Positions 10,353 through 63,436 are shown, counted from the first letter of the stretch. The stretch is DNA of 64,000 nucleotides from Bdellovibrionales bacterium (GCA_965116155.1 OZ220488.1:1304318-1368317); one strand, 5' to 3'. A program made the numbers and translations. The notes: generated from the letters alone by a model not told the origin.

Positions 10353-10946
10353 GTGCCAATATATGTGCCGGGTTATAGGGACCGCAAGGGCAGGGCTTCT
10401 GTTGTTAAGCGTAATGTGGTGGCGCTGTTATCTTTAACAGCCATGGTGGATCTGTTTACGGTTTTGGTGGTGTTTTTGTTGCAGAGCTATAATGTGACGG
10501 GCGAGGTAATAGACATTAGTGACGAGGTGCTGTTGCCGCAGGCTGTGCAGACAAAGGATCTCACCCCGGCCCATGTGGTGGTGCTGTCGCCAGATGAGTT
10601 GTTATTTAATGGTGAGCAGGTGGCTAATGTAAGCAGTTTGCGCGCGCAGCAGCATTGGATGATTGAAAGCTTGCTGGCTCAAACGCGCGGAGCTATTGAG
10701 GTGGGCGAAGCTAATGAAAAGAGCCTGTATGCAAAGATCAAAAGTGGTGTGCGGCAGGTTCGTAATGCTCCTGCAGATGAAAATGATGGTGTTGCTGCGG
10801 TGGTGCCGGAGTATCGAAAGGCCACAGTGCAGGCGGATAAGAGCATTCGATTTTTAACTCTTAAAAAGGTCTTGTACACGCTTACAGAGGCCGGCATCAT
10901 CGAAATCAATTTTGCAGTAATAAAAAGCCCCGAGTTAGAGCGCTAG
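10353..10946 (+). CDS. ExbD/TolR-family protein (second copy, AglQ/AglS-like)
   Basis: 197 aa with the ExbD signature (LSLTAMVDLFTVLVVFLL). The stop codon lies inside the TTAGAGCGCTAG motif (10935-10946). Confidence 0.7.
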   Translation: MPIYVPGYRDRKGRASVVKRNVVALLSLTAMVDLFTVLVVFLLQSYNVTGEVIDISDEVLLPQAVQTKDLTPAHVVVLSPDELLFNGEQVANVSSLRAQQHWMIESLLAQTRGAIEVGEANEKSLYAKIKSGVRQVRNAPADENDGVAAVVPEYRKATVQADKSIRFLTLKKVLYTLTEAGIIEINFAVIKSPELER

Positions 10947-10961
10947 TCCAAAATTCTGGGA

Positions 10962-11094
10962 TAGAGTGCGTAAGCATAAAAGTGTTAGTGAGGGCGCCTT
11001 GGCCAGAAAGCGCAGCCTGCTGACACACCTTTAGGTGTGCAAGGCAAGCGGTCTAAGCCAGGGTGCCCTCACGCGCTGGATAAAGCGGCGGCGC
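10962..11094. repeat. 133-bp hairpin element, copy a (TAGAGTGCGTAAGCATAAAAGTGTTAGTGAGGGCGCC...CCCTCACGCGCTGGATAAAGCGGCGGCGC)
   Basis: By manual alignment it differs from copy b (39949-40081) at 2 positions. Internal stems: GTGAGGGCGCC.TGG/CCAGGGTGCCCTCAC and CACACC-TTTA-GGTGTG. Confidence 0.9.
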
Positions 11095-11173
11095 AAGAGC
11101 AGCACCCAGTGCTTTTCAAGAGAGTTTGAACGCTTTGGGCCTATTGATCGCCCCAAGCTGTCGGCGCATTGAT

Positions 11174-11303
11174 AGCTGTCTAGCGCGCAAAAACACTTTG
11201 AATGGGGCCTCGCTTGCCACCTTGGCTGGCGCCCCTTGCAGGGGCTGCCAATGTGTCTACGCCTCTGATCAAAGTGTTTTTGCTGGCGCTTTTATCCTTA
11301 CGG
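11174..11303. repeat. Y-type hairpin element Y1 (AGCTGTCTAGCGCGC - arm - core - arm' - TGGCGCTTTTATCCTTACGG)
   Basis: Arms GCAAAAACACTTTGA / TCAAAGTGTTTTTGC. Core TTGGCTGGCGCCCCTTGCAGGGGCTGCCAA. An inverted near-identical copy lies at 39413-39543 (about 3 differences by eye). Confidence 0.9.
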
Positions 11304-11521
11304 AGCAAGCGTCCTACAGAGAATTTTGCGGCCTATAAGTGCGTAAGCATTTTTGCGCGCTAGACAGCTGGCGTAAGCATTAGAGTGCCAACAAAAAGGC
11401 GTGACCTGAGCTGCCAGATTTGCTTAAAGCTATGGAGCCTTGAGTCCATAGCGCCGTCTCCTTGATGCGCCTTTGGGCGGAAAGCCTTGAGCCTTAGGTT
11501 TGTCTTCGTCATACTATAAAT

Positions 11522-14086
11522 ATGCGTAAGCACTGGGTGGTTATTTGTTGTGTGGTGCTGTCTTGTGCTTTTATTGTGGTAGCTTGCTCCGATGATACTC
11601 CGGACCCTAAAGCGCCCACTCCTGATGCGAGCGCTGCAGACTTAAGGGCCGATGTACTAAAAGACCACGACACCCTGGTGGTGCCGCGTGATGGTGAGAC
11701 GCAGTACGATTTAAAACCTTTTTTTGCCACACTGCATGGGGTGGCAAAAAGCCAAATCCGCACCTCTAACACCAAAAGCCAAGTGGAGTTTGATACAGAT
11801 GACTGCTCGGAGGATGATGAGCTTTTTGAGCTGTCGTACCAAGTGTCAGGCAAAGACAAAGAGATAAATATAGAGTGTGCGGATTCTAGCACGGGCTTGC
11901 CCGATAGCGTGGATGAGGGGTTTTTATTTTTAGCTGGCAACAAAATCTATATGTATACGCTGGATGACAACGATGGCAAAAAGGACAAAGTGCCCATCAG
12001 TGCAGGGGAGTTGTTGTTTTTTTCTGCTGCGTCTAAAAATTTAAATGCTTCTAAAAAATTGCGCCGCCAAGAGATCACCTTTAAGGGCGATGACGATGAG
12101 ACAGAAGCTTCAGAGGTAGGAGCCGTATTAGCTTTTGGTGCTGCAGGTGACGTAAAGGTGGAGGACACCACTTTAGGCACTGCTGGTGCAGCTAAGGGCG
12201 ACGGGTTTTTATTTATAGCCGTGCACTGGGGCACAGATGATGGGGCGGATGATTTTTTTGGCCTAGGTCAGGACGAAGAAGACAATGTGCAAAAAGCCCA
12301 ACCAAGCTCTGGTAGTAACAATGATGATAACGACGATAGCGGTGGCGGCGACAGTGGCGGCAACAGTGGCGACGATGATGACAATGACGGCGACAGTGGT
12401 GACAGTAGCGGCGATGGCGATGGTGCAGGTGGAAGTAACGACGATGACAGTGGCAACAATAATGGTGACAGTGATAGTGACGATGATGATGACGTGGCAG
12501 GGGCGGCTAATTTGGTGGCGCCTTTTGCTGATGCAAAGGTGCAGGCTGGCACAAGTGCGGGGAGCTTAAATTTTAGCTGGGCCTGTAACACTGCAGCTGC
12601 GGATTCTATGTACCACTTAGCTAGTGCTGAGGGCGATTTAGACAGCTGTGCTGAGGTGAGTGTTGAGAGCACGCCTTTAGCAGATCGCACATTAGCGGGT
12701 GTGCATATTTTAAAAAAAACCGCATCAAGCAATTGGTCAAAGGCGGGCTATATTGCTGCAAGAGCTGTTACTAAAACAGGGTCGCGTTTTAAAGTGGTGC
12801 TAACTGACGTTGATACAGGTATTTATCAGTATGCTGTGGCGCCCGCTAAGGGAGAGAGTGATCTAGCGTGGGGGCGTGCTCCCTATCTAACACAGGCACA
12901 GCTGTTGGAAACAGGAGCAACGGGTACCACAAAGGTTAGTAGCTGCACTCACAATAACATGCCTGGGGCAAAAGAGTTTGCCGTGCTTGGCGTACCTGCT
13001 ACAAGCATACAGCTGTGTGTACCTCGCAACAAAAGGTGTGGGTTCAAACCGGTGCCAGGTAAGGCGGCGGGTGCGGATTGTGAGTGCCAGGCGTATGGGG
13101 GTCGTGCTTCGTCTGTGTCTGGTTTTGTGTGGGATGGCAAATGCGCCATGAATCCTATATTTAAGATGCTGCGTTACACCCAGCACAATACCAAAGGGCT
13201 CACGTTAGAGGAGCAAACAAGGTTAGCTAATCCCATAGGCCATGTTAAGTTTACGCCTATGTTTGGGTTTCCACCCTATGCCTCATGGGTCGCAGTGGAT
13301 CGGCGGTGGTTAAGGGCTTTCCGCCAGGAAATTGAAATCTGTGAAAAAACAAACAATGTAGGTGTGTGGCCTTCTGGCAATGTGCAAGGCGGCAGCTGGT
13401 GTAAGGGTCAAGGGGAGCTCAGGTCACCGTGGGTGTTTCCTGCGGAGCGCTTAGCTGTAGCGGCGAATGTGCGCCATTATTTTCGTATGCGCGCGTTGCA
13501 CCTTACTTTGAATTTGGGTGATGCAAATTACTGGCGAAGCCCTTGGGTTTTGATGCAAGCGGATTCGCACACAAGGTTTTGGGGTTTTTCAGACTCTACG
13601 GATGCTACTAAGCGCGATGTATTAGAAGCGCCTAGTGGAGCAAAGGTGTTATATGGTGGCAAAGGGAATGACTGGCTATCTGATACCACTCAAACGGCAA
13701 CGAATATGACTTTTTTGGTGGATTCTTTTTCTTGGGATTTAATTACCAATTTAGAACAAAGGTTCGCGCTTGGAGGAACTAGCCATACAACTCATATTAA
13801 GTGCTATAACGCGAGCCATACGCTTAAAATGGTGATTTTAGAGAGGCCGGATAATTTTTCTACCAGCAATTGGCAGACGCACTTTCAGGAGGCGACCCAT
13901 GCTTCAGACGCTCTGCCGCCAAGCGCATGCGCATTAGCAGATGCGGGCTTAAGGCATGCAAACTGCAAAGGCGTTCGTATTGTTATTAATTCTCAAGGAC
14001 ATTTTCATTTGTCTGGCACTTTTGGCGGCTCCTTAGGTGGCACCGCAGACGCCCCCAAGCGGCTACTGTATTTTAAGTGCAATTAG
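11522..14086 (+). CDS. Large lipoprotein with acidic D/S/G/N low-complexity linker and Cys-rich C-terminal region; function unknown
   Basis: 854 aa with a lipobox (..FIVVA-CSDD). Linker at about aa 255-330 (SGSNNDDNDDSGGGDSGGNSGDDDDNDGDSGDSSGDGDG..). One RTX-like nonapeptide (YGGKGNDWL). The stop TAG lies in the motif variant TTAGAGTGTTAG. Confidence 0.6.
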   Translation: MRKHWVVICCVVLSCAFIVVACSDDTPDPKAPTPDASAADLRADVLKDHDTLVVPRDGETQYDLKPFFATLHGVAKSQIRTSNTKSQVEFDTDDCSEDDELFELSYQVSGKDKEINIECADSSTGLPDSVDEGFLFLAGNKIYMYTLDDNDGKKDKVPISAGELLFFSAASKNLNASKKLRRQEITFKGDDDETEASEVGAVLAFGAAGDVKVEDTTLGTAGAAKGDGFLFIAVHWGTDDGADDFFGLGQDEEDNVQKAQPSSGSNNDDNDDSGGGDSGGNSGDDDDNDGDSGDSSGDGDGAGGSNDDDSGNNNGDSDSDDDDDVAGAANLVAPFADAKVQAGTSAGSLNFSWACNTAAADSMYHLASAEGDLDSCAEVSVESTPLADRTLAGVHILKKTASSNWSKAGYIAARAVTKTGSRFKVVLTDVDTGIYQYAVAPAKGESDLAWGRAPYLTQAQLLETGATGTTKVSSCTHNNMPGAKEFAVLGVPATSIQLCVPRNKRCGFKPVPGKAAGADCECQAYGGRASSVSGFVWDGKCAMNPIFKMLRYTQHNTKGLTLEEQTRLANPIGHVKFTPMFGFPPYASWVAVDRRWLRAFRQEIEICEKTNNVGVWPSGNVQGGSWCKGQGELRSPWVFPAERLAVAANVRHYFRMRALHLTLNLGDANYWRSPWVLMQADSHTRFWGFSDSTDATKRDVLEAPSGAKVLYGGKGNDWLSDTTQTATNMTFLVDSFSWDLITNLEQRFALGGTSHTTHIKCYNASHTLKMVILERPDNFSTSNWQTHFQEATHASDALPPSACALADAGLRHANCKGVRIVINSQGHFHLSGTFGGSLGGTADAPKRLLYFKCN

Positions 14087-14212
14087 AGTGTTAGCCCAAT
14101 ATTCTGGGCAAAGCGCAATCTCCAGTGTAGCCCCTGTTAAGGGGCTATCACGCTGGAGATAAGCGCCCCACAGAATATTGGGCGGGCCTATAAGGCATCT
14201 ATGAGCCTGTAG
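14083..14212. repeat. X-type hairpin element (TTAGAGTGTTAG - CCCAATATTCTGGG ... CCCACAGAATATTGGG - CGGGCCTATAAGGCATCTATGAGCCTGTAG)
   Basis: Read directly. Nested stems CTCCAGTG/CACGCTGGAG and TAGCCCCT-GTTA-AGGGGCTA. Termini match the family consensus. Confidence 0.85.
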
Positions 14213-14431
14213 CCTTGTGCGATTTTTAGGCACAAGGCAACCAGAGTTGCTTAAGGGAGTCTGGACGCTGCGTGCACCCTTTGGACTTTGCACAGTGCAC
14301 CATGCCTTTACACGTGCGTGCATATTGTGCATAGTACTTTGCGGGTTTGGATTAACAAAAATCTACGTGCCACTATTGGCTCTGGAGTTTTTGTTTTTTT
14401 TCGGCATAGCAAAAAGGATATGGAATAAATT

Positions 14432-15427
14432 ATGGCACCAGAAAGAAAAGCAAGTTTAAACACACACTACACCAACACGCATGATCGTTTCTTCCGGAGT
14501 TGTTTTAAGGATAAGGGTTATACGAGGGCGCTGCTAAAATTTTGGCTGCCTCAAAGCGTGCAGGAGGTGTTGGACATTAAAGGCCTGGTTAAGCAGGATG
14601 CCTCTTTGCCTACTATAGGCAAAGAGGCAGACTTGCTAGTACGAGGAACACTTAAAAACACCAGGCCAATTTATATTTTATTAGAGCACAAGCACCAACG
14701 GCAACCCAACAAAACATACAGACAAATGGCTGATTATGGAGTAGCAATAATGCATTTCGAGTTATCTAAGCCTCAAAAGGAGCGGCCTGTTATTGTGAAT
14801 TGCATTTTTTACCATGGCAAAGACCCGTGGCAGCAAGGGTGCGAGTCCGGACTTAATACTGTAATGCACGATATAGGAGCAGAAAGCATAGACTCCATCT
14901 TGCTGCAATTCCATGTGTTTGATCTTGGGCGCCTAGATCGGTCTTTGTGGCCTTCTAAGGGTGCACTGTATTCTATTCTGTATGCGCTTTTAAAGGTGCA
15001 ACAGTTTGGTGATATGGCAGGAAAAGAAAGGCGCGAATTTTTTAGGCAAATTTTCAGCCACCTGGATGACAATGACAGTACAAACCTGATGCAGCATGTG
15101 GTAACTTATGTTTCGAGTGTTTGTGGGATAGACCATGAGGAGGTGATGGGTATGTTAAAGTCAAGTGGTGCGGCAAGAAAGGAATATTTTGAAGCTTGGG
15201 AGCAAAATATGGGTAACCCATGGAAGGAGGCTGGTCGCAAGCAAGGCCAGGCAGAAGGGCGTGCAGAGGGCCTAGAAAAAGGCCTAGAAAAAGGCCTCAA
15301 GCGAGGCCGCGCAGAGGAGCGTGTGGCAGTGGCTGCGAATATGCTCAAAAAAGGCTTGAAGCTCTCTGTAATTTCAGAAGTTACAGGCCTCTCTCAAGAC
15401 GAAATCAAGGGGATTAAAAAGGGCTAG
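14432..15427 (+). CDS. Rpn-family recombination-promoting nuclease / putative transposase (PD-(D/E)XK, YhgA-like)
   Basis: 331 aa. N-terminus HDRFFRSCF.., ..EADLLVRG..YILLEHKHQ.. (the D..E-x-K type core used by this family). Repetitive charged C-terminal tail (EGRAEGLEKGLEKGLKRGRAEER) plus an HTH-like end, typical of Rpn/YhgA-like proteins. Visibly more AT-rich than neighbours. Confidence 0.7.
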   Translation: MAPERKASLNTHYTNTHDRFFRSCFKDKGYTRALLKFWLPQSVQEVLDIKGLVKQDASLPTIGKEADLLVRGTLKNTRPIYILLEHKHQRQPNKTYRQMADYGVAIMHFELSKPQKERPVIVNCIFYHGKDPWQQGCESGLNTVMHDIGAESIDSILLQFHVFDLGRLDRSLWPSKGALYSILYALLKVQQFGDMAGKERREFFRQIFSHLDDNDSTNLMQHVVTYVSSVCGIDHEEVMGMLKSSGAARKEYFEAWEQNMGNPWKEAGRKQGQAEGRAEGLEKGLEKGLKRGRAEERVAVAANMLKKGLKLSVISEVTGLSQDEIKGIKKG

Positions 15428-15563: not shown

Positions 15564-15830
15564 GTGGGAATGAGGAAGGTGTATAGTGAGGAGCAGATTA
15601 TTAAGGTGCTGGATAGGTTGAGGTCTGGTGTTTCTGCGCAGGACGTGTGTCGAGAGATGGGTGTGAGCCGGCAGAGTTTGTATACGTGGAGGCGCAAGTT
15701 TGGTGGTCTTGGTCTGAGTGAGATGAAGAGGCTGAGGGTTTTGGAGAGAGAGAATGCGAATTTGAAGCGTCTGGTGGCGGATTTGAATTTGGATAATCAG
15801 ATACTAAAAGACAGTTTGCTAAAGTCCTAG
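15564..15830 (+). CDS. IS3-family transposase OrfA (HTH) of a truncated IS
   Basis: 88 aa with an HTH (VSAQDVCREMGVSRQSLYTWRRKF) followed by a leucine-zipper-like segment (LERENANLKRLVADLNL). Classic IS3 OrfA layout. Confidence 0.8.
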   Translation: MGMRKVYSEEQIIKVLDRLRSGVSAQDVCREMGVSRQSLYTWRRKFGGLGLSEMKRLRVLERENANLKRLVADLNLDNQILKDSLLKS

Positions 15831-16000: not shown

Positions 16001-16557
16001 ATTGTAGTCGACGCTGAAGTATTATCTAAACGACTGTAATTATTGTTAAATTTGTTGATATTGTGGGTTCTGTTTTTGCAGGGTTTATGGTGTTTTGAGT
16101 GAAGCTGTCTAGCGCGCAATATTACCTTGAAGCCTACGTTTGCCGTCTTGGCTAGCGCCCTGCGGGCTGCCAAGATGGCTGCACTCTAAGGTTCAAGGGT
16201 AATATTACTGGCGCTTTTATGCTTACGCCAAAAACCCTGCAAAACAAGAGGCTCTCTAGTGCACAAAATATTAACCTTGCAAAAGTTCTGCGTGTTAGCC
16301 CCTTGTGCTGAAGTATGTTCTCCGGCTGACTCTGGCTTAAGTTAGAGCGCTAGTAAAATTCTCTGAAGCAAAGCGGCGGCATCCTGACAGCCTCTGCAGG
16401 AGGCGACGATCAGGGTGCCAAGCGTCTTACAGAGAATTTTGCGACCTATAAGGGATCTGCGTGCCTGTAAGATACAGTATTAAAACCCTAATGTGGCACG
16501 AGTACGCGACAGCCGGAAGCCGGAGAACATACTTCAGTCACGACTATTGTAGCAAGC
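16001..16557. repeat. Composite palindromic repeat array, copy 1 (short form)
   Basis: Collinear with 39261-40376 by manual alignment. Terminal inverted repeats TAGTCGACGCTGAAG.. / ..CTTCAGTCACGACTA. Contains Y-type element 16103-16229 and X-type element 16342-16470. Confidence 0.85.
16103..16229. repeat. Y-type hairpin element Y3
   Basis: AGCTGTCTAGCGCGC, arms AATATTACCTTGAA / TTCAAGGGTAATATT, core CTTGGCTAGCGCCCTGCGGGCTGCCAAG, tail TGGCGCTTTTATGCTTACGCC. Confidence 0.85.
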
Positions 16558-16774: not shown

Positions 16775-16794
16775 TTAGAGCGCTAGCGCTCTAA
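16775..16794. repeat. Perfect 20-bp palindrome TTAGAGCGCTAGCGCTCTAA (two overlapping boundary motifs) on the scoB stop codon
   Basis: Read directly. The minus-strand reading CAA GTT AGA GCG CTA GCG CTC TAA gives the ScoB C-terminus ..QVRALAL*. Confidence 0.95.
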
Positions 16795-19357: not shown

Positions 19358-19463
19358 AGACAGGCCGAAACTTTACCCCTCCCTGAGCCACCATTCAAGC
19401 TATATCGCAGAGGGCCATAGAGTCCTTGAGCTGTCTAGCGCTCTAAGTTAATCTGTTGGGGCT

Positions 19464-29435: not shown

Positions 29436-29502
29436 CGCGCGTGGTATCAAAGTGCGAGGCTTTGGCGATAATGTGTTCGCTGCGGGCCCTGCAGGCCCTT
29501 CG

Positions 29503-40340: not shown

Positions 40341-40364
40341 CCGAAGAACATACTTCAGTCACGA

Positions 40365-48655: not shown

Positions 48656-48780
48656 TACGCGCTGCTATTTGGCTCGCCTGGGGACCGGCGCCGGTGGCGC
48701 CTGCCAGGCAAGCATGGTGATACGACAGTTTGGCAGTTGTGCCTTTAAGGCGTGAGAGTTGGCTTTTATGCTACGCACTA

Positions 48781-51807: not shown

Positions 51808-51903
51808 TTTGTATTTACTAGAAACACGAGACTTTAACGGGAATATCGCGGCTACGGGCCTTTGACGGGAGTGTGGTCGCTTCGGGCCTTTGGCCCTTCG
51901 CTA

Positions 51904-52027
51904 TAGGCTTGTAGATGCTTCATAGGTCGCAAAATTCTCTGTAAGACGCTTGGCACCCTGATGGCCGCCCCGTTGGGGCTATCAGTATGCCGTCGCTTAA
52001 CTTCAGAGAATTTTACTAGCGCTCTAA
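51904..52027. repeat. X-type hairpin element (near-duplicate of 29503-29636) whose terminal CTAGCGCTCTAA carries the pseudopilin stop codon
   Basis: ..GTAGATGCTTCATAGGTCGCAAAATTCTCTGTAAGACGCTTGGCACCCTGATGGCCGCCCCGTTGGGGCTATCAGTATGCCG..CAGAGAATTTTACTAGCGCTCTAA. Confidence 0.9.
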
Positions 52028-54247: not shown

Positions 54248-54859
54248 ATGAGAGGTATTTTATTAAAAGGCTTCTGTTTGGTGGGGCTTGGTATTGGGAT
54301 GAGCGCGCCCTCTTGGGCTGTGAGCGCTTTTTACGAGCAGTTTGCACGGGCGCAACAGGCTTTTGAAGAAGGGCAAGCGCAAAAGGCGCAGCACGAGTTT
54401 GAGTGGCTGGTAAAGAGCGCCTATAGCGAGCAGCTCTCGCCCGTGCAGAGGCAGAGCTTTTTTCACAGTTATTTAAGGTTGGCGCAGCTGTCTAAGGATG
54501 GGTTTCAGAAAAAACTCTGGCTCCTTAAGGCTATGGAAACCATGCCCCGTGTAGACCCTGATCCGGAGCTTTTTCCGCCACCCTTGTTGGCTTTGTATAG
54601 GGAGCTAAAAGCGCAGCGTCAGGGTCTGGAAACGGACACGGCTGATCAGGAGAGCCTACGCACGCGCTCCGCAACAGGTGCGCGCAAGTTAGCGCTTAAA
54701 AATACCGCCCCTAAAGCCATTAAGGCTGGGGGCAAGGGGCCTTGGGTAGCGGTGGGAGCTGTGCTGCTAGGAGGCGTGGCTTTGGGTGTTGCGCAGCATT
54801 ATGCGCGCGCGTCTTCTAACGCGCCCACTGCGCCCATGCCCAGAACCACTAGGTTTTAA
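54248..54859 (+). CDS. Secreted/C-terminally anchored protein, unknown function
   Basis: 203 aa with a signal peptide (..APSWA-VSA), a helical region and a C-terminal TM (WVAVGAVLLGGVALGVA). Confidence 0.45.
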   Translation: MRGILLKGFCLVGLGIGMSAPSWAVSAFYEQFARAQQAFEEGQAQKAQHEFEWLVKSAYSEQLSPVQRQSFFHSYLRLAQLSKDGFQKKLWLLKAMETMPRVDPDPELFPPPLLALYRELKAQRQGLETDTADQESLRTRSATGARKLALKNTAPKAIKAGGKGPWVAVGAVLLGGVALGVAQHYARASSNAPTAPMPRTTRF

Positions 54860-54860: not shown

Positions 54861-55235
54861 GCGTAAGCATCAGAGCGCTAGCAAGACCACTGGTATGCGG
54901 CGCAGCCCCATTGGCAGCGCCTTCAGGCGCGTTAGCCAAGGAGGCAAGCAAAGCCCCCAGTGGTCTTGCGACCTATGAAGCTACAGGGCCATAGATCCCT
55001 TATAGGCCGCAGAATTTTCTGTGGGACGCTTGCTTCTGTCGTGGCCGCCTTTAGCTGTCTAGTGCACAAAAATGCTTCAGGCAGGACCACTTGTCCATCT
55101 GATGGCCCGCACCTAAAGGTGCTATCAGCTGGACTGCGTAGGGCTGAAGCCATTTTTGTTGGCACTTTTATGCTTACGCACGGAGGCTGCGCCAGGAGCG
55201 CCGCTTTATCCCAGAAAATTCTACTAGCGCTCTAA
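54861..55235. repeat. Hairpin repeat array R12 (X-type 54861-54988 inverted; X-type 54984-55235 containing nested Y-type 55053-55180)
   Basis: GCGTAAGCATCAGAGCGCTAG-CAAGACCACTGG...CCAGTGGTCTTG-CGACCTATGAAG. Then CAGGGCCATAGATCCCTTATAGGCCGC-AGAATTTTCTGTGGG...CCCAGAAAATTCT-ACTAGCGCTCTAA. Confidence 0.9.
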
Positions 55236-55241: not shown

Positions 55242-55796
55242 TTGCAGTACCCTGCTGGGGTTGTGGGAGCAAAAGTTTTGGGTCCGGCGATTTTGGTTTG
55301 TGTGGCCGTTTTTTTGGGCTTTGGCATTTGGGCCCTTTCGACCAACCGTGTGGTGGTGGGGTACAACCAAAACTATGCCCCCGATCAGCCGATTGCGTTT
55401 TCGCACCAAAGGCATGCTGGGGAGCTGCAGATTGACTGCCGCTATTGTCACACTGCGGTGGATGTTTCGCGCGCAGCCAGTGTGCCCAGTTTAGATATTT
55501 GTATGAACTGCCACGCTCTTGTAAAAAAAGACTCCCCAGCTCTAAGCATGCTAAAGCAGCACTACGCGGATGGTGTGCCCGTGGGCTGGCAAAAGGTGCA
55601 CCTGTTGCCAGACCATGTAAAGTTCAACCACGCAGCCCATACGCGCGCGGGCAAAAGTTGTGCAGAGTGCCATGGGCCGGTGGAGAGCATGGAGGTTGTG
55701 GAGCAATTTAGCAGCCTTTCTATGGGGTTTTGTGTTAACTGTCACCGTCAGCCGGAGAATAACGCTCCTATAAACTGCGCCACTTGCCACTATTGA
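55242..55796 (+). CDS. actA: Alternative complex III subunit ActA (pentaheme cytochrome c)
   Basis: 184 aa with an N-terminal TM. Five CxxCH motifs (CRYCH, CMNCH, CAECH, CVNCH, CATCH). Start uncertain (TTG 55242 or GTG 55263). Confidence 0.85.
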   Translation: MQYPAGVVGAKVLGPAILVCVAVFLGFGIWALSTNRVVVGYNQNYAPDQPIAFSHQRHAGELQIDCRYCHTAVDVSRAASVPSLDICMNCHALVKKDSPALSMLKQHYADGVPVGWQKVHLLPDHVKFNHAAHTRAGKSCAECHGPVESMEVVEQFSSLSMGFCVNCHRQPENNAPINCATCHY

Positions 55797-55854
55797 GGTT
55801 GAGCAAGAGGTTGGGCAAATGGACGCAGCGGGACGGGAAGCAACCTAAGGTGGT

Positions 55855-58800
55855 TTGAGAGTGTCGTCTGATAAAAACAATGTAAAGCAGGTTTCGAGCG
55901 AAGAGGTGCACCCTGCGCCCTACTGGCTCAGCCTTGGGGAGGCCTCGCTGGAGGCCGAAGTGTCGTCGCAAAATAACCCCCATAAAAATGCAGCAGCTAA
56001 AAATGCAGCAGTAAGCAAAACGTCAACGGAGTTTATTAGCTCTCCCCTTAAAGAGGGCGCCACCGATGGCCCTGGCAGGCGGGAGTTTTTAAAGCTCATG
56101 GGTGCGAGCCTTGCCTTGGGGAGCGCGGGCTGTTTGAGGCGACCAGCGCAGAAGATTGTACCCTATGTGGAGCGCCCTGCAGAGGTGGTGCAGGGTGTGA
56201 ACAATTACTATGCCTCTAGTTATTTTGATGGCGCTGAGGGCTTTAACCTAGTGGTAACGACCCGTGAGGGGCGGCCTATAAAGCTAGACGCCAATGCCGA
56301 TGCCAATAGGTTAAGCTTTGGCGTAAGGGGCGGAATGTCGGCCCGTGCGCATGCACACTTGCTAAGCCTGTACGACCCGGATCGTTTAAAGGCTCCTTTG
56401 GGGCGGGTGTTTAATAAGGGGCGCACCAACTCGGACACTGTGCAGCCCAAGTGGCAAGCTCTAGATCAAGGCGTATTGGAGCTTTTGCAAAAAGCCCGCA
56501 GTTCTCTGGGGCTGGTGGTGGGTCCTACGGCTTCACCCACTGAGAGGCATTTGGTGGAAGAGTTTGCAAAGCACTTTGGTGCACGCTTGTATGTGCATGA
56601 CCCTTTAGGTGATGGAGCGGAGCGCTTTTATGAAGAGTGCTACGGGAGCGCGGTACGGCCGGTTTATAGGCCGGAGCTTGCGAAGATGGTGCTGTCGTTG
56701 GGGGGGGATTTTTTAGGCGCATCGGGCCCAGCGGTGCGCAGTACGGCGCTGTTTGCAAAGGCTAGAAAAAACCTTAACTCCATGAACGAGCTGGTGGTGT
56801 TTGAGTCTTTAATGAGCCTTACGGGCACCAATGCGGATACGCGCTATATGCTGCGGGCGTCGGATTGGCACCTGGTGGCTTGGGCTTTGGTGCGCGAGCT
56901 GGGGCAGGCGGGTTTGGTTGCGCTAAACTCTGCAGCAAAGGAGATTGTGCAGTCTCTTGCGGGTCGTATGGAGCACCTACAGGTGGAGCGTGGAGTGATT
57001 AAAAACCTGTCTCGGCGTTTGTGGCAGCACCGTGGGGAGTGTTTGGTTTTGGCAGGAGGTTTGGCGGGAGCGACGGCTAATAGGCGTAGTTTGCATACGG
57101 GGGTGAACTACTTAAACCATCTGTTGGGTAATAACGAAAACACTTTAAGTTTTGCTATGGCGCCGCGGAGCTTATGGCGCACTAGTGCGGATTTGGGCAA
57201 TTTAGAGCAAGACGTAACCGCGGGGCGTGTTAACACTGTGTTGGCCTATGGCACGAACTGGGTGTATTCGGCGGGGGCACTTGGCAGGTCGGTGCTGCCG
57301 CGTTTAAAGGCTATGGTTTATGTGGGTGGGGCGGATGACGAGACCGCTTTACATTCGGACTGGGTAGCTGCAGCAGACCACCCTTTAGAGAGCTGGGGCG
57401 ACAACGAGTTTGTAAGGGGTGTGTATAGTATTCAGCAGCCTACGATTAGGCCTTTGTACGGTACGCGCGCGAGGCAAGAGTCGCTGTTGTCATGGATGCA
57501 GGCGAGCAAAAATTCCAAAACCTCTTCAAAGCCTTCTAATGGTGCAGCAAACTTGGCAGAAAAATCTTTGTGGCATGCGTATTTGCAAAATTACTGGCGC
57601 CGCAATTTTAAATCGGCAAAGGGTGCTCCACAGGGAGGCTTTGAGGCCTTTTGGCAGGAGTGGTTATCTAAAGGGGTCGTGGGCCAAAGAGCTAAAGGGC
57701 AAGGCAGTGAGGGGGTGCGTTTTCGCGCTGAAGCTTTTAAGCCTTTGCTGGCTGAGGTGGGGCGATTGGCGCGTCGCCCGGAGTCGGATTTAGAGTTAGT
57801 GCTTTATGAGAGCGTGGGTTTGGGTTCGGGCGATATGGCAAATGTGGCATGGCTGCAGGAGTTTCCGGACCCTGTGTCTAAAATCTGTTGGGACAACTAC
57901 TTGAGCGTTGCACCGCGCGTTGCGCGCGCGCGCGGGTGGGTTGAGGGTGACATGTTGGAGCTGGATTTAGGCACAGGGCGCCGCACAGTATTGCCTTTGC
58001 ATGTGCAGCCGGGCCAGCAGGCTAATACTTTGGGCGTGGCGGTGGGCTATGGGCGCACGCGTGCGGGGCGTGTGGGCACTTTAGTGGGAGTGAATGCTTT
58101 TGATCTTACGGCCTGGGCACACGGCAGCAGGGTGAGTGCGGGCTTGATGGTGTTGGGGGTTAGAAAAAAGGAATTGTACGCGCGTTATGCTCTGGCAAAT
58201 GTGCAAGGGCATCACAGCATTGATAAAGGTTTTCATACGCAGCATGGGCGCCAGATTGTGGTAGAGCAGACTTGGCGCCAGTATAAGGACGACCCGAGCT
58301 CGGGCATTCATAGGCACAAGGTGTTTTCGCTTTGGGGCGAGCATGAGTACAAGGGGCACAAGTGGGGCATGGGTGTGGATTTGAACTCTTGCACGGGCTG
58401 TGGGGCTTGTATTGTGGCTTGTCAGTCTGAGAACAACGTGCCCGTTGTGGGTAAGGAGTATGTGCTTCAGGGGCGCGAGATGCATTGGATGCGGGTGGAT
58501 CGTTACTTTACCGGTGAGCCCGATGATCCTGGGGTGGTGCATATGCCGGTTATGTGCCAGCATTGCGATAATGCGCCTTGTGAGACGGTGTGTCCTGTAG
58601 CGGCCACCGTGCATGGGCCTGAGGGTACAAACGACATGATCTACAACCGCTGCGTGGGCACGAGGTACTGCGCAAACAACTGCCCGTACAAGGTGCGTAG
58701 GTTTAATTGGTTTGATTACTCTAAAGTAACAAGCCCTTTGCATATGGCCTTGAACCCTGAGGTAACGCACCGCTCGCGTGGGGTGATGGAGAAGTGCACG

Positions 58801-59079
58801 TTCTGCATACATAAGGTTACTTATGCCAAGCACACAGCACGCGTGCGTGGAGAGGAGTTTAAGGCAGATGATGTGCAAACGGCCTGTCAGGTAGCTTGCC
58901 CTGCAGAGGCTATTAGTTTTGGAGATTTGAACGACCCTAACTCGCAAGTGAGCCGCAAGCTGCAAGAGCCTCGGTCGTACACTTTGTTAGAGGAGCTTAA
59001 CAACAAGCCGGCGGTGCACTACCAGACCAAGGTGCGCAACGCGCCTGAGCTTAAAGGCAAACACAGCGATGGACACTAA
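55855..59079 (+). CDS. actB: Alternative complex III subunit ActB (molybdopterin-oxidoreductase-like + 4Fe-4S ferredoxin domains)
   Basis: 1074 aa. Tat signal (GRREFLKLMGASLALGSAG). C-terminal cluster motifs CTGCGACIVAC, CQHCDNAPC, CVGTRYCANNCP, CTFC. Confidence 0.9.
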   Translation: MRVSSDKNNVKQVSSEEVHPAPYWLSLGEASLEAEVSSQNNPHKNAAAKNAAVSKTSTEFISSPLKEGATDGPGRREFLKLMGASLALGSAGCLRRPAQKIVPYVERPAEVVQGVNNYYASSYFDGAEGFNLVVTTREGRPIKLDANADANRLSFGVRGGMSARAHAHLLSLYDPDRLKAPLGRVFNKGRTNSDTVQPKWQALDQGVLELLQKARSSLGLVVGPTASPTERHLVEEFAKHFGARLYVHDPLGDGAERFYEECYGSAVRPVYRPELAKMVLSLGGDFLGASGPAVRSTALFAKARKNLNSMNELVVFESLMSLTGTNADTRYMLRASDWHLVAWALVRELGQAGLVALNSAAKEIVQSLAGRMEHLQVERGVIKNLSRRLWQHRGECLVLAGGLAGATANRRSLHTGVNYLNHLLGNNENTLSFAMAPRSLWRTSADLGNLEQDVTAGRVNTVLAYGTNWVYSAGALGRSVLPRLKAMVYVGGADDETALHSDWVAAADHPLESWGDNEFVRGVYSIQQPTIRPLYGTRARQESLLSWMQASKNSKTSSKPSNGAANLAEKSLWHAYLQNYWRRNFKSAKGAPQGGFEAFWQEWLSKGVVGQRAKGQGSEGVRFRAEAFKPLLAEVGRLARRPESDLELVLYESVGLGSGDMANVAWLQEFPDPVSKICWDNYLSVAPRVARARGWVEGDMLELDLGTGRRTVLPLHVQPGQQANTLGVAVGYGRTRAGRVGTLVGVNAFDLTAWAHGSRVSAGLMVLGVRKKELYARYALANVQGHHSIDKGFHTQHGRQIVVEQTWRQYKDDPSSGIHRHKVFSLWGEHEYKGHKWGMGVDLNSCTGCGACIVACQSENNVPVVGKEYVLQGREMHWMRVDRYFTGEPDDPGVVHMPVMCQHCDNAPCETVCPVAATVHGPEGTNDMIYNRCVGTRYCANNCPYKVRRFNWFDYSKVTSPLHMALNPEVTHRSRGVMEKCTFCIHKVTYAKHTARVRGEEFKADDVQTACQVACPAEAISFGDLNDPNSQVSRKLQEPRSYTLLEELNNKPAVHYQTKVRNAPELKGKHSDGH

Positions 59080-59160
59080 AGCGGGGAGTGAAGTGAGTGA
59101 CAGTGCCGCTACCGGTGGTGGCAAGTTGTGTATTGGTAGTGGGGATGCGGAGGGAGTGAA

Positions 59161-60573
59161 GTGAGCGATAGCACCGCGCCTCTGAATGAGGCCAATGCGG
59201 TACGCAAAGCGCCCGGCATAAGGCCGCGTATGTTTGCGCGCCCTAAGACGTACAAGCAGATTAGTGACGATGTGGCTTCGTTAACTGAGACCTGGCCGGG
59301 TTGGAAGTACCTGGCTATGTTAGGTGGGGCGAAGAGTTTGTTTGTGCTGTATGTGTTTTGTATGGGGATGATCGTGGCGTATGGGATGGGCCTTATGGGG
59401 GTGAACCATCCTGTGGGTTGGGGAACGGATATTATTACTTTTGTTTTTTGGATTGGGATTGGGCATGCGGGGACGTTAATTTCGGCGATTTTGTATTTGT
59501 TTAGGCAAAAGTGGCGCATTGCGATTGCGCGCAGTGCGGAGGCGATGACGGTGTTTGCGGTGATGGTGGCGGGGACGTTTCCGGTACTGCATACGGGGCG
59601 GCCATGGCTTGCGTATTGGTTGTTGCCGTACCCGAATCAGCGGGGCCCTTTGTGGGTGAACTTTCGCTCTCCCTTGGTGTGGGATGTGTTTGCGGTGAGC
59701 ACTTATGCGACGGTGTCGTTGGTGTTTTGGTACATTGGCATGGTGCCGGATTTGGCAACCTTAAGGGACCGCAGTAAAAACCCTTGGCGCAAGAGGGTGT
59801 ATGGTATTTTGAGTTTGGGTTGGCGTGGCACGGCTCGTAATTGGAACCACTATGAGATTGTGTATATGTTGCTGGCTGGGCTGGCGACGCCTTTGGTTTT
59901 GTCGGTGCACTCTATAGTGTCGTTTGATTTTGCGGTGGCGCAGCTGCCGGGCTGGCATACTACGATTTTTCCGCCTTATTTTGTGGCGGGGGCGATTTTT
60001 TCTGGCTTTGGTATGGTGGTGACTTTAATGGTGCTGGTGCGCGCGCTGGTGCCTTGGTTTAAGGATTATGTCACTTTGTCGCATATGGAGAGCATGAACA
60101 AAATCATTATGGCAACGGGCTTAATGGTAGGCTATGCCTATGCGAGTGAGATGTTTATTGCGTGGTACTCGGCTTCGCCTTACGAGGGGTTTGTGTTTTT
60201 CAACCGGGCCTTTGGGGCTTATGGTTGGTCGTATTGGATTATGGTGAGTTGTAATGTTTTGATACCGCAGCTGTTTTGGTTTAAGTTTTTTCGCACCAAT
60301 ATTGTGAGTATGTTTGTGATTTCGTTGTTTGTAAATTTGGGCATGTGGTTTGAGAGGTACGTGATTGTTGTTACGAGTTTGCATGCGGACTTTTTGCCGG
60401 TGAATTGGGGCATTTTTGATATGACCTTTTGGGACCAAGGCGCGCTGGTGGGGAGTTTTGGGATGTTTTTGTTTTTGTTTTTGCTTTACATACGGGTTTT
60501 GCCGGCAATTTCTATTGCAGAGCTAAAGCCCTTGCTGGGCGGGCGTGGGCATAAGCCTACAGATGGGAGCTAG
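59161..60573 (+). CDS. actC: Alternative complex III subunit ActC (NrfD/PsrC-like quinol-interacting membrane subunit)
   Basis: 470 aa polytopic membrane protein with NrfD-like blocks ([25 protein letters not shown]). GTG start overlaps the stop of a 23-codon uORF. Confidence 0.9.
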
Positions 60574-61146
60574 GTGGTGCTAAGTAAGTTAAGTAAATGT
60601 GTGGATTATATTGAGCAGAAACTGAGCTCCAAGACCATCCCTGGGCGTGTGGCCTTGTGGGAGGAAGAGGGAGCCTTTTTGCGTGCGGCGGCGCGGGTGC
60701 GGGAGCTTGTGGGGTCGGAGGGTTTTGAGGCGATTTCGCCCTATCCGGTGCATGGCATCGAAAGCGCCTGTGGTTTAAAGCGGTCGTTTATTCCGTATGC
60801 TACGTTTGTGTTTGCGTTTTTGGGTTTTGGTTTTGGTGTGTGGTTTACTTGGTGGACTTCGGCTTCGGACTGGCCGCTAGTGATCGGGGGTAAGCCTATG
60901 TGGAGTTTGCCGGCTTTTATTCCGGTGATTTTTGAGTGCACCATATTATTTGCGGCTTTGGGCAGTGTGCTGACTATGCTGGTGGTGCAGGCTTTGCCTA
61001 AGGTGGCGCCTCCTGTGCTGGATGAGTCCTTAAGCTGCCATAGGTTTGGTATTTTTGTGCCGCACTCAGCGGGTGTGGGTACGGAGCAGCTGGACGCAAT
61101 TTTTAAAGACTGTGCGGCCATTGATATTAAGGCAGCTGTATTTTAA
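60574..61146 (+). CDS. actD: Alternative complex III subunit ActD (DUF3341-type)
   Basis: 190 aa. Soluble N-domain plus two TMs. Position between actC and the monoheme subunit. Confidence 0.8.
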   Translation: MVLSKLSKCVDYIEQKLSSKTIPGRVALWEEEGAFLRAAARVRELVGSEGFEAISPYPVHGIESACGLKRSFIPYATFVFAFLGFGFGVWFTWWTSASDWPLVIGGKPMWSLPAFIPVIFECTILFAALGSVLTMLVVQALPKVAPPVLDESLSCHRFGIFVPHSAGVGTEQLDAIFKDCAAIDIKAAVF

Positions 61147-61151
61147 GGCGT

Positions 61152-61748
61152 GTGTGTATGCTTAGTGTTTTAAAATTTGGTATGCGGCTTTGGGGGGCAG
61201 GTGCTTTTGGGGCACTGATTTGGGTACTGGTTTGTGCACTGATTTGCTGGGGGCTTTTGGGATGCAATGGGGGCAAGAACCGCACTAATATTGAGCTTAT
61301 TCGTGGCATGATGGATCAAAGATCTTTAAAGGCCCAAGACTGGGACGGCGCGCGGGGCAAGCCTGCTGCCATGTTGCCTCCTCGGGGCACTTTACCTATG
61401 GGGCATGAGCCCTACAAGCACAGCTTTGAAAGCTCCGCCGCGCTTGAAGCGCCTGCGGAGTGGCAGGCACTAAGTTTGGAGCAGTTGCAGCAGGCAAAAG
61501 AGCTGTATCGGGTTTACTGCGCCGTATGCCATGGCGCGGGTGGTAGGGGCAAAGGGACGGTGGGGGAGTTTTTAACCCTGCAGCCTCCCGACTTGCTTGC
61601 GGCGCAGGTCAAGGCTTATGCGGCGGGGCAGCTTTACCATATAATCACCCAAGGCTATGGGCAGATGAGATCGTATAAAAATTTAGTGCGCGAGCCTTGG
61701 CAAAGGTGGGCCATTGTGGGTTATGTGCGGCACTTGCAGGGCCAATAA
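61152..61748 (+). CDS. actE: Alternative complex III subunit ActE (monoheme cytochrome c)
   Basis: 198 aa with an N-terminal TM/lipoprotein-like segment. A single CAVCHG heme motif. Confidence 0.8.
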   Translation: MCMLSVLKFGMRLWGAGAFGALIWVLVCALICWGLLGCNGGKNRTNIELIRGMMDQRSLKAQDWDGARGKPAAMLPPRGTLPMGHEPYKHSFESSAALEAPAEWQALSLEQLQQAKELYRVYCAVCHGAGGRGKGTVGEFLTLQPPDLLAAQVKAYAAGQLYHIITQGYGQMRSYKNLVREPWQRWAIVGYVRHLQGQ

Positions 61749-61790
61749 CAGAGCAAATGGCAGAGCAAAACAAAAGGACCGGGCAGTAGT

Positions 61791-62969
61791 GTGAGTAATA
61801 GTAGCGGTAAGTTTTTGGCAAATTATAAGTCTTGGTTAATGGGTTTTTTTGCTTTGGGGGCGGTGTGTTTTTTTGTGGGTTTGAGGCTTGATCCGCAAAG
61901 GGCGTGGTTGGCTTATTTGGTGGGATTTTTTTATGTCACCAGCCTTAGTTTGGGGGGCTTGTTTTTTGTGGCTTTGCAGTATGTGGTTAAAGCGGGTTGG
62001 AGCGTAAATTTGCGCAGGTTTGCCGAAGCTTTTGCAAGTTTTGTGCCTTGGGGCTTGGTATTGGGGGTGGTGCTGCTTTTGGGTGTGGATGAGATTTACT
62101 CGTGGGCCAATGAGGCTTATGTGGCAAAGGATCCTGTGCTGCAGCATAAGGCTGCGTATTTGAACAAGGGCTTTTTTGCTGTAAGGCTGGTGGTGTTTTT
62201 TGGTTTGTGGGTGCTTTTTGCTAGGGTGCTGACGTTTTTGGATCTGCGGCAGGAGCGCTTAAAGCAAAGCGAGTGGCCGCGCTTGGTGCGTTGGGGTGTT
62301 GCGGGGGTGTTGGTGTTTGCTTTGAGCTACACGCTGTTTAGTATGGATCTGCTTATGAGTTTGGAGCCGCATTGGTTTAGTACGATTTTTGGGGTGTACT
62401 GTTTTGCGGGTTTGTTTCAGAGCACTATGGCGGCTTTGGTGCTGGGGGTGTTTTGTGCTTATAGGTGTGGGGTTTTGGATAGGTCTTTAGTGAGTGATGA
62501 GCATTTGCATGATCTGGGTAAGTTTATGTTCGCGTTTACGGTTTTTTGGGCGTATATCGCTTTTTCGCAATATATGCTGATCTGGTACGCCAACTTGCCT
62601 GAGGAGACGATTTTTTATGTACCGCGGTCGCAGGCCTCGTGGGCGTGGGTGAGTTTGGGCTTGTTGGTGTTTAGGTTTGTGGTGCCTTTTTTGGTGCTGC
62701 TGCCAAGGGGTAGCAAAAGGTGCCCTTTGACCTTGGGCGCAATGAGTGTGCTGGTTTTGGTGATGCAGTATGTGGACCTTTATTGGTTGGCGTACCCTTC
62801 GGTTAAGGCTTTTCAAAAAGGTGCGGTTTTTGGTGTGTACGAGGTGGGGGTGGCTTTGGGTTTTGTGGCTGTGTTTTTGTTTGCGGTGGTGGGTTTTTTA
62901 AAGCGCCATGCCTTGACTCCGCAGTGGGATCCTTTGCTTCAGGAGTCTAGCACCCACCATGTGGTTTAA
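61791..62969 (+). CDS. actF: Alternative complex III subunit ActF (ActC-related membrane subunit)
   Basis: 392 aa polytopic membrane protein. Last gene of the act cluster. Confidence 0.8.
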   Translation: MSNSSGKFLANYKSWLMGFFALGAVCFFVGLRLDPQRAWLAYLVGFFYVTSLSLGGLFFVALQYVVKAGWSVNLRRFAEAFASFVPWGLVLGVVLLLGVDEIYSWANEAYVAKDPVLQHKAAYLNKGFFAVRLVVFFGLWVLFARVLTFLDLRQERLKQSEWPRLVRWGVAGVLVFALSYTLFSMDLLMSLEPHWFSTIFGVYCFAGLFQSTMAALVLGVFCAYRCGVLDRSLVSDEHLHDLGKFMFAFTVFWAYIAFSQYMLIWYANLPEETIFYVPRSQASWAWVSLGLLVFRFVVPFLVLLPRGSKRCPLTLGAMSVLVLVMQYVDLYWLAYPSVKAFQKGAVFGVYEVGVALGFVAVFLFAVVGFLKRHALTPQWDPLLQESSTHHVV

Positions 62970-62995
62970 GCGCAGCATTTAGAAGTGGTGGTGGT

Positions 62996-63436
62996 GTGGT
63001 TTTGCGGCTGTTTTTAAGTTGTGGAGGCTTGGGCTTTAGCCCTTATGCTCCTGGTACACTTGGCACATTGGCGGGTGTGCCTTTGGTGTATGCGGTGTCT
63101 TTGTGGGGTGGAGTGTTTTGGCATGGCGTGCTGGTGCTGGTGCTGTTTGCTTTAGGTGTGGGAGCGGTTGGCGTGTACGAAAAAGCTTGCGCGCGCCATG
63201 ACCCGTCTGAGGTGGTGCTGGACGAGGTGCTGGGTTATGGGGTGAGCATGTTGGGGGTGCCGCTGTCGTTTACCAATATGCTTTTGGGGTTTGTGGTGTT
63301 TAGGTTGCTGGATATTTTTAAACCCTGGCCTATCTCGTGGATAGACCGGCAAAAGTCTCCTGCTAGTGTCATGGCCGACGACGTAGCCGCCGGGCTCGCG
63401 ACGAATTTGATTATTCAGTTGCTGCTAGCGCTCTAA
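62996..63436 (+). CDS. pgpA: Phosphatidylglycerophosphatase A
   Basis: 146 aa. GFSPYAPGTLGTLAGVPL, DEVLG, FRLLDIFKPWPI, DDVAAG. The stop TAA is the end of CTAGCGCTCTAA. Confidence 0.85.
   Translation: MVLRLFLSCGGLGFSPYAPGTLGTLAGVPLVYAVSLWGGVFWHGVLVLVLFALGVGAVGVYEKACARHDPSEVVLDEVLGYGVSMLGVPLSFTNMLLGFVVFRLLDIFKPWPISWIDRQKSPASVMADDVAAGLATNLIIQLLLAL

Follow-up and report, generated by a model that had tools for sequence, protein, structure and literature searches.

In a 64,000-nucleotide stretch of the genome of a Bdellovibrionales bacterium (GCA_965116155.1 OZ220488.1:1304318-1368317), referred to below as the window, the 12-nucleotide (nt) box TTAGAGCGCTAG recurs at the ends of genes, and 8 of the 51 genes present stop within it or 1 nt away from it. 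The best reading of the box is as the conserved, unpaired outer head of a group of lineage-specific small non-coding palindromic repeats, of the same kind as repetitive extragenic palindromes (REPs), REPINs and transposable elements of the miniature inverted-repeat type (MITEs). These repeats are probably mobile and would insert at TAG- or TA-type sites at gene 3' ends, the insertions being filtered by selection and the head supplying the stop codon. A preliminary description of the window, made from the sequence alone, had already drawn attention to the 12-mer at gene ends; that recurrence is real and statistically sound, and the interpretation offered with it was essentially right in its mobile-element form. 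All statistics given here refer to this one 64-kb window and its 51 genes.

Recurrence of the box at gene ends

The exact box is present in 11 copies, counting both strands, against 0.03 expected from dinucleotide-preserving shuffles, and with up to two mismatches allowed there are 37 matches where 6.4 would be expected. About 21 were judged by context to be genuine element heads, made up of the 11 exact copies, four copies with one mismatch and some six with two:

One-mismatch heads: 29615, 34711, 39132 and 54870
Two-mismatch heads: 14083, 34570, 34669 and 39157, and probably also 39248 and 29636

This accords with the earlier count of at least 17 copies of the 12-mer or a close variant; the positions then listed are real, except that 34721, 39133 and 39168 are the end positions of their copies. 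None of the 11 exact copies falls within the body of a gene, in line with the earlier remark that none had been seen there, and the two-mismatch matches that do so number 11, which is near chance (about 5.6 expected). A stop codon is overlapped by five of the exact copies (per-copy probability 0.0625, p = 3e-4), under a generous null in which a copy may fall anywhere in non-coding DNA or within the final 12 nt of a gene. Copies 16342 and 39922, both inside one duplicated 550-nt composite, are not independent, and counting nine independent loci gives p = 1e-4.

Gene identities were checked by Pfam, and each stop overlap claimed earlier was recomputed. Three of the boxes concerned can be described in a line each, the remainder being listed with the hairpin elements below:

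10935-10946, plus strand: exact head in which ExbD2 (10353-10946) has its final four codons, L-E-R-stop
16775-16794, either strand: perfect 20-bp palindrome TTAGAGCG-CTAG-CGCTCTAA, two heads sharing CTAG, without an interior
63425-63436, minus strand: solo exact box without a hairpin, common to the convergent genes for an acyl-CoA dehydrogenase and PgpA

Every one of the overlaps was reproduced. ExbD2 ends ..ELER*, its TAG occupying box positions 10-12, as does the TAG of a 307-amino acid protein (..QLER*) in the exact head at 36496-36507. At positions 2-4 lie the stop TAG of an 854-amino acid protein, in the variant box TTAGAGTGTTAG (14083-14094), that of a pseudopilin, in the exact head at 52016-52027, and that of the acyl-CoA dehydrogenase in the box at 63425-63436. 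PgpA, which overlaps the convergent dehydrogenase gene by 4 nt, ends ..LLAL* by reading CTA GCG CTC TAA from the opposite side of the same box, and the 20-bp palindrome encodes the terminal (V)RALAL-stop of ScoB, whose gene reads through to the TAA. The eighth gene, for metzincin 2, abuts the box at the 1-nt distance reported before and does not overlap it: its TAA (48911-48913) lies one base beyond, and the gene strand reads TAA-G-TTAGAGCGCTAG. It had also been noticed that the box can be read to a stop from both directions, and this is so: positions 2-4 and 10-12 each form a TAG, and a box in inverted orientation offers a TAA.

The seven genes that enter the box from outside do so in all three reading frames, in the ratio 3:2:2 (positions 2-4 in three, positions 10-12 in two and the third frame in two), which counts against an in-frame stop codon as the sole target. 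At seven gene junctions the shared sequence sets in at box base 1 or a single base earlier, what lies upstream being unrelated, and junctions as sharp as these fit insertion better than erosion or deletion of a spacer. Three genes share with the box only the TAG of TTAG, and their stop may be native; in four others (those for ExbD2, the 307-amino acid protein, ScoB and PgpA) the box encodes the last two to five codons. Integration at stops and replacement of native 3' ends, which had been put forward as alternatives, therefore both seem to apply, to three and to four genes respectively.

Alignment with orthologues, the check proposed in the preliminary description, found the lengths of ScoB and PgpA to be native-like and the ALAL tail of ScoB to be box-encoded. 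ScoB has 219 residues and its orthologues 216-220; after a conserved P-x-[VI]-[KR] these bear two to five variable residues, and in ScoB the V-R is encoded by G-TTAG-A and followed by the ALAL of the box. The end of PgpA lies within the range of the ends of 24 homologues, and the acyl-CoA dehydrogenase extends four residues past a conserved ..IAK, compared with four to nine in solved homologues. The clearest case of an element edge at a native stop is provided by two copies of a secreted-protein gene, pA (38375-39016) and pB (49952-50593), which adjoin members of a set of three paralogous matrixin-like metallopeptidase genes (37492-38274, 48911-49690 and 50842-51807). Both copies have identical ..YETCELI* ends (..TTAATTTAA); past the pA stop, repeats start within 1 nt, and past the pB stop there is a unique spacer of 261 nt. 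Taken together, these native-like lengths place the element edges at the native stop or no more than about four codons upstream of it. A separate feature of the third matrixin-like peptidase is a C-terminal extension of about 50 residues ending ..GCACTCTAA, which resembles an inverted head.

The native length and hydrophobicity of the PgpA and ScoB tails would also agree with the idea that conserved sequence of an ordinary gene, or a chance recurrence, accounts for the motif. That idea has a negligible probability, however: 11 exact copies stand against 0.03 expected, genes with no relation to each other terminate in these 12 nt in three different frames and on either strand, and the variable tails of the ScoB orthologues never read ..RALAL.

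Anatomy, nesting and other repeats at stops

When eight units are aligned in one orientation, the same layout appears in all, with the head, T[TC]A[GA]AG[CT]G[CT]TAG, coming first and standing directly beside the hairpin, in agreement with the earlier view of the 12-mer as an outer edge of the hairpin elements. The further statement that all the copies away from stops are such edges is not wholly correct, since 19435, like the copy at 63425, is a solo box with no adjacent hairpin. The canonical element, about 130 nt in all, runs from the head through an inverted-repeat arm of 13-16 nt into an inner hairpin rich in GC, and then through the complementary arm to a degenerate head in inverted orientation (GCGACCTATAA...). 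The arms are paired as TAAAATTCTCTGAAG with CTTACAGAGAATTTT, CCCAATATTCTGGG with CCCACAGAATATTGGG, or CAAAATAACCTTGAG with CTCAAGGTTATTTTG. The complementary arm is followed by GCGACCTATAAGG, which on the other strand is the degenerate head TTATAGGTCGC, and in A-type elements only there is a further 19-nt extension GATCTAYGAGCCTGTAG, ending ..CCTGTAG. The B-type element at 34570-34680 has inverted heads at both ends, whereas in A-type elements the head is set against a degenerate inverted head TTATAGGYCGC and the 19-nt extension. The tag at the foot of the hairpin is the CTAG inside the 12-mer, not GTAG or CGTC; the one place where GTAG occurs is the distal end of the A-type extension, which terminates in it in four of six copies. 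A second class of head has looser boxes (TCAGAGTGCTAG, TAAAAGTGTTAG and TAAAAGCGCCAG), each following GCGTAAGCA, a sequence that never precedes the exact 12-mer. Units measure 110-135 nt, there are at least nine hairpin units and about 21 heads in the 64 kb, and no open reading frames (ORFs) of note are found inside the units. The individual elements are as follows:

10935 onwards, plus strand: repeats on the ExbD2 side, with head, inverted-repeat arm TCCAAAATTCTGGGA, a nested 'GCGTAAGCA'-type element (to about 11094) and composite repeats to about 11397
14083-14213, plus strand: complete A-type, with head TTAGAGTGTTAG, arm CCCAATATTCTGGG, central hairpin, arm CCCACAGAATATTGGG and tail CGGGCCTATAAGGCATCTATGAGCCTGTAG
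16342-16472, plus strand: complete A-type with exact head, nested in the loop of the 550-nt composite (16006-16548)
19435-19446, minus strand: solo exact box between a thiolase gene and gene 19464, in their divergent promoter region, no stop codon being involved
29500-29626, minus strand: A-type, with head TTAGAGTGCTAG (29615-29626) after GCGTAAGCA, facing the start of downstream gene 29660
34570-34680, plus strand: B-type, with inverted heads TTAAAGTGCTAG ... CTAGCACTCTGA around a near-perfect hairpin and ATGCTTACGC on both flanks
34696-34722, minus strand: partial A-type that hosts the B-type insertion, with outer arm and head TTAGAGCGCCAG (34711-34722), facing the promoter side of gene 34819
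36448-36507, minus strand: truncated A-type, with exact head 36496-36507 forming L-E-R-stop of the 307-amino acid gene, arm CCCAATATTCTG and a 30-nt module shared with 34523-34552
39028-39143, minus strand: B-type, with head TTAAAGCGCTAG (39132-39143) and a TATAGGTCG-type tail at the far end
39157-39168, plus strand: head variant TCAGAGTGCTAG after GCGTAAGCA, opening a truncated hairpin element
39922-40167, plus strand: A-type with exact head, into which a 'GCGTAAGCA'-type element, some 120 nt long, is nested after CTCTGAGG; counterpart of 16342-16472
48778-48909, minus strand: complete A-type, with exact head 48898-48909, 1 nt from the TAA of metzincin 2
51901-52027, minus strand: complete A-type, with exact head 52016-52027 at the TAG of the pseudopilin
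54861-54992, plus strand: C-type, with GCGTAAGCA, head TCAGAGCGCTAG (54870-54881), arms CAAGACCACTGG / CCAGTGGTCTTG and tail CGACCTATGAAG, 1 nt past the TAA of gene 54248-54859
54981-55235, minus strand: A-type, with exact head 55224-55235 facing the start of a cytochrome c7-like gene, the interior enlarged by nested insertions

The hairpin adjoining the head is about 95 nt long. In the consensus fold of eight copies pairing begins at the last G of the box, leaving positions 1-11 unpaired, and across subfamilies, whose stems differ in sequence under a head common to all, compensatory changes are seen in 23 of the 32 consensus pairs. Stems open with an A-run and close with a T-run, the T-run of the arm pairing with the A-run in the predicted folds. 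Single units fold with z-scores of -4 to -13 relative to shuffles; thus the element at 14083-14213 gives an RNA fold of -70 kcal/mol (z -8.2) and the B-type element at 34570-34680 gives -67 and -74 kcal/mol on its two strands, while no hairpin lies beside the solo box at 19435-19446 (fold z +1.2). The two strands of a unit fold about equally well, which points to a palindrome at the level of DNA; a strand-specific RNA was considered and set aside, forward and reverse folds being alike and the sign of their difference varying between copies. As a separate observation on gene context, an Alternative Complex III-like operon (55242-62969, encoding cytochrome c7-like, Fe-S, NrfD, ActD and cytochrome c subunits) opens 6 nt past the exact head at 55224-55235.

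The 550-nt composite at 16006-16548, bounded by terminal inverted repeats TAGTCG...CTGAAGTAT, recurs at 39271-40372 as a 1.1-kb copy with three additional insertions, and this comparison of filled and empty copies establishes that insertions are nested. An IS3-type orfA remnant (15564-15830, HTH_Tnp_1) lies beside the first copy. The genome appears to be compact (88% coding, in a 1.61-Mb contig), and of the 7.8 kb of non-coding DNA at least 3.0 kb is repeated inside the window. Repeats or a solo box are found in all six convergent intergenic regions, in five same-direction spacers and in one divergent spacer; elements adjoin each other without spacers.

The association with stops is not tied to this 12-mer alone, but is shared by other repeat families. 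In about 14 of the 51 genes the stop falls within sequence of one of several families repeated in the window, or at most 1 nt away from it, and at about 14 of the 15 repeat-bearing 3' ends the spacer is 1 nt or less. The TAG of truB was found within the terminal repeat of the 550-nt composite (..AATAG|TCGTGACTGAAG), where it had been placed earlier. A tnaA-like gene runs through the left arm of a perfect 23-bp hairpin (48606-48655, loop TTTA), its last nine codons and TAG occupying the left arm and loop; the protein ends ..HKSQLSRL, 13 residues past the end of the alignment with a solved homologue, and the hairpin recurs 135 nt downstream, with its right arm again at 48741-48776. Gene 33860-34549 ends in the 30-nt module repeated at 36448, and GCGTAAGC-type heads lie within 1 nt past genes 38375-39016 and 54248-54859. 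The TAG of ETF-alpha is inside a 26-nt segment repeated elsewhere: a 26-nt coding stretch of the tnaA-like gene (conserved ..THFDTTRAN..) lies inverted and 25/26 identical over that TAG (29431-29456 and 47606-47631), and looks like a captured or filler fragment. A tandem repeat of another sort is present at 1097-1159, where four copies of the 16-mer AAAGCCCGGTACCGTT stand in a row and the TAA of gene 140-1114 falls in the first.

A DUF6088 (AbiEi-like) / AbiEii toxin-antitoxin gene pair (34819-36394) is bracketed by direct copies of one partial A-type element, at 34523-34722 and 36448-36507. The flanking repeats were compared by BLAST segments, since the nested insertion spoils a global alignment: the copies share the 30-nt module (93% identical) and CAGAATATTGG.CT.GCGCTCTAA, the left one carrying the nested B-type hairpin. 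From this arrangement it looks as though the AbiE pair is a defence cassette that integrated at a repeat element or duplicated one; without the cassette the outer genes would be convergent, with their stops at opposite ends of one element.

Insertion and its alternatives

TAG or TAA is carried at junctions throughout the clusters, as T-TAG-AGCGC at heads, GA-TAG/TAA-AGTGCG at nested elements, ..CCTG-TAG at A-type tails and TAG-TCGTGAC at composite ends, and from this we infer insertion at TAG- or TA(R)-type sites. In the explanation that we favour the elements would integrate at such sites, with TTAG serving as their target or forming their first bases. Since TTAG is common in coding DNA (about 530 sites, with 79 in non-coding DNA), selection must complete the placement, and the insertions surviving it would be those at the extreme 3' ends of genes only. 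Insertion at an in-frame (T)TAG would retain the native stop. Out-of-frame insertion in the last codons would be tolerated, as the head closes two of the three frames within four codons, and further closing stops could be provided by a TAA just upstream in four copies (TAAG-TTAG..) and by the TAA in an inverted head. Each insertion would regenerate a junction TAG, so that later elements could stack against the gene. The 20-bp palindrome may represent a B-type unit after deletion of the hairpin between its two foot CTAG repeats, and the solo boxes would need further deletion. The stops would, on this explanation, be a by-product of insertion and selection and not a designed signal.

Several points weigh against this explanation. 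Given the abundance of TTAG in coding DNA, target preference alone cannot explain the placement, and the flushness of about 14 of 15 repeat-bearing ends is tighter than insertion anywhere neutral would predict. The two solo boxes (19435 and 63425), like the 20-bp palindrome, require additional deletion steps. The evidence is confined to one 64-kb window; scans of GTDB and JGI data found the family in no second genome, and hence no empty site was seen. Among the window genes scanned (49 of 51) there is no transposase with matching ends, only the IS3 orfA remnant and an Rpn/Transposase_31 gene. Lastly, no consistent target-site duplication could be defined. The candidates TA, TAG, TAAG, CTAG and a 9-10-bp GCTTACGC each fit some copies and fail others, and although TAG or TA stands at both ends of four or five of the six compact (un-nested) A-type copies, it is not separable there from element sequence.

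The lack of a consistent duplication, together with the TTAG that bounds all 13 family-1 heads, is what would be expected if the repeats were REPIN-like single-stranded DNA elements moved by an HUH tyrosine enzyme, either RAYT or IS200/IS605-type, for which TTAG would be the obligatory cleavage or target tetranucleotide; elements would then land 3' of TTAG, often as xxT-TAG at gene ends. The asymmetric ends (head versus tail), the conservation of hairpin structure but not sequence, and the V-[KR] of ScoB encoded by G-TTAG-A, as though the native gene had given the TTAG, would all suit such a mechanism. So would the tag-plus-hairpin layout, which is like that of GTAG-tagged REPs (PMC3733652), as is the GTAG of the A-type extension. 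We nevertheless regard it as a possibility of rather low likelihood. A Pfam search for Y1_Tnp gave no match in 49 of the 51 window genes or in the IS3 orfA remnant, a scan that omits the ORFs at 2890-6798 and 23946-27065. The tag on the hairpin side is CTAG in place of GTAG or CGTC, and the hairpin is single, long and central, not one of a subterminal pair. Moreover, the heads are of mixed orientation (about five plus, about eight minus) under a GC skew that is uniform along the stretch, whereas IS200/IS605-type elements are usually strand-biased.

The extremely tight placement at stops might instead mean that the 12-mer, with or without its hairpin, is a signal selected there: a bidirectional terminator, a stabiliser of mRNA 3' ends, a translation-coupled regulator or a protein-binding site. 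In Escherichia coli, REPs within 15 nt of stops exert translation-coupled regulation. Such a role would be in keeping with the hairpin-less solo boxes at a convergent pair and in a promoter region, with stems that run from an A-run to a T-run, and with the more frequent exactness of the box at gene ends (six of seven, compared with 4 of 11 other copies; Fisher p = 0.057). It is unlikely all the same. Consensus terminator scans are not enriched (39 vs 27 +/- 5 and 35 vs 29 +/- 6) and do not pick the elements, which do not have the short GC-rich stem and U-tract of an intrinsic terminator; the terminator or protein-binding role entertained in the preliminary description found no support. Rfam 15 yielded no family match at the gathering threshold, and below it only a mir-191 hairpin match. 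The orientation of the box relative to the upstream transcript varies, it is absent from all the other genomes and metagenomes scanned, only 8 of the 51 genes have it, and several unrelated repeat termini overlap stops in the same manner.

Flush junctions could also have arisen after the event, had the elements inserted anywhere downstream and later deletion of the spacer, or gene conversion between copies, brought them up to the stop. Elements that abut one another without spacers in a compact genome are compatible with such a history, and the solo boxes and the 20-bp palindrome indicate that deletions inside elements do occur. But random deletion would truncate heads, whereas the seven gene junctions keep the whole box from base 1, and pB retains its 261-nt unique spacer past the same stop as pA; we consider this history very unlikely.

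The same low standing is given to the notion that the head is the recognition site of a machinery that places hairpins specifically at translation stops and not at any TA or TTAG, possibly with the participation of a lineage-specific Rpn-like Transposase_31 family, expanded 10-fold in this genome. Such a machinery would yield the roughly 14 of 15 flush junctions whatever the reading frame. If true, it would define a class of stop-codon-homing mobile elements that also remodels protein C-termini. A gene for an Rpn / YhgA-like Transposase_31 protein (PD-(D/E)XK) lies at 14432-15427 beside the largest repeat cluster, and it has at least ten paralogues of 50-84% identity on the same contig, the nearest outside protein being 27% identical. 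No inverted repeats were found around it, and no box-encoded tails in the C-termini of ten paralogues, whose ends are native-like. Upstream of the gene, at about 14348-14363, is TGGATTAACAAAAATC, which seems to match the terminal repeat of the Neisseria Correia element, a likeness that may be a coincidence.

Known repeat families and significance

Stop donation by repeats of the REP and MITE types is already documented; for the repeat family described here, no match was found in any collection searched. When the GTDB representative genomes were scanned for exact matches, neither a 22-mer made of head and arm nor the 20-bp palindrome gave any, a 21-mer gave none in JGI metagenomes, and a plasmid BLAST search with the full element was likewise without a match. 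The sequence GTGCGTAAGCATAAAAGTG was tried as a family marker and rejected: its 21 loci all represent a single conserved coding segment from unrelated marine contigs, lack the 12-mer and are not repeats. The nearest homologues of ScoB are proteins of Bdellovibrionota metagenome-assembled genomes with at most 71% identity, and those of PgpA are 45-50% identical; the host therefore belongs to a deep lineage of which no near relatives have been sequenced.

The closest known kind is the REP/REPIN group, although membership of REP proper is not established, the hairpin tag being a different one. Tagged REPs and REPINs, which are moved by RAYT (TnpA-REP), resemble the present elements in that they are extragenic palindromes present in many copies, bear a short conserved tag beside the foot of the hairpin, often cluster, and are sited between convergent and same-direction genes. 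REPINs form long hairpins of about 100 nt (PMC3116915), and the termini of GTAG-tagged REPs have been reported to supply TAG stops to flanking ORFs (Di Nocera et al.; PMC3733652). The differences are an 11-12-nt box with CTAG at the foot where REPs have GTAG or CGTC, a different 30-nt tail at the other end, several subfamilies of unrelated stem under one head, heavy nesting, and no RAYT gene seen in 49 of the 51 window genes.

It is plausible that the family belongs to the MITEs. Bacterial MITEs with TA targets and with stops in all frames are the subject of a review (PMC2229807), and stops in many frames, as in the present repeats, keep such elements intergenic. Correia/NEMIS, RUP (related to IS630-Spn1, with a TA target) and ERIC elements are similar to those described here in their size of 100-160 bp, in what look like terminal inverted repeats around a foldable interior, in TA-containing junctions and in inserting into other mobile elements; unlike them, the present repeats have imperfect inverted repeats, no defined TA duplication, no identified parent insertion sequence (IS) and no sequence similarity. 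In Coxiella burnetii, copies of QMITE1 and QMITE2 extend 1-50 bp into the 3' ends of functional genes, to which they can contribute C-terminal residues as well as the stop (PMC5896051). There, in a different organism and with a different sequence, the overlaps are occasional, whereas here about 14 of 15 ends are flush and one 12-nt box serves eight genes in 64 kb. IS200/IS605 elements, among them IS608 and ISDra2, and their non-autonomous derivatives, the PATEs (PMC6006769), offer a possible likeness in that their two ends differ, they depend on hairpins in DNA, one end always adjoins the same tetranucleotide, and a duplication is lacking. They differ in having two small subterminal hairpins where the present repeats have one long central one, with no strand bias and no TnpA or TnpB gene seen in the window. 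Among all these the family is distinct in the 12-nt head shared by its subfamilies, in its tail, in its dense nesting and in its near-universal flushness with stops.

For annotation, the consequence is that repeat DNA contains about a quarter of the stop codons examined. Repeat-encoded protein ends (..LER in two proteins, ..ALAL, ..LAL and ..HKSQLSRL) matter for the reading of gene ends, C-terminal tags and orthologue alignments. For biology, selfish hairpin repeats and host genes share the same few nucleotides, and the observation made on GTAG-tagged REPs is extended to a deep-branching, apparently Bdellovibrionota-like lineage. Were the flushness to stem from insertion specificity and not from selection, it would imply a mechanism that senses gene ends, and we know of no report of one for repeats of the REP or MITE type.

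A minor observation concerns stop usage in the 51 genes, which is TAA in 26, TAG in 21 and TGA in 4, so that for a GC content of about 50% TAG is unusually frequent and TGA rare. About 11 of the TAG stops lie away from repeats, and TGA is functional as a stop, as seen from the ATGA overlap between the genes for ETF-beta and ETF-alpha.

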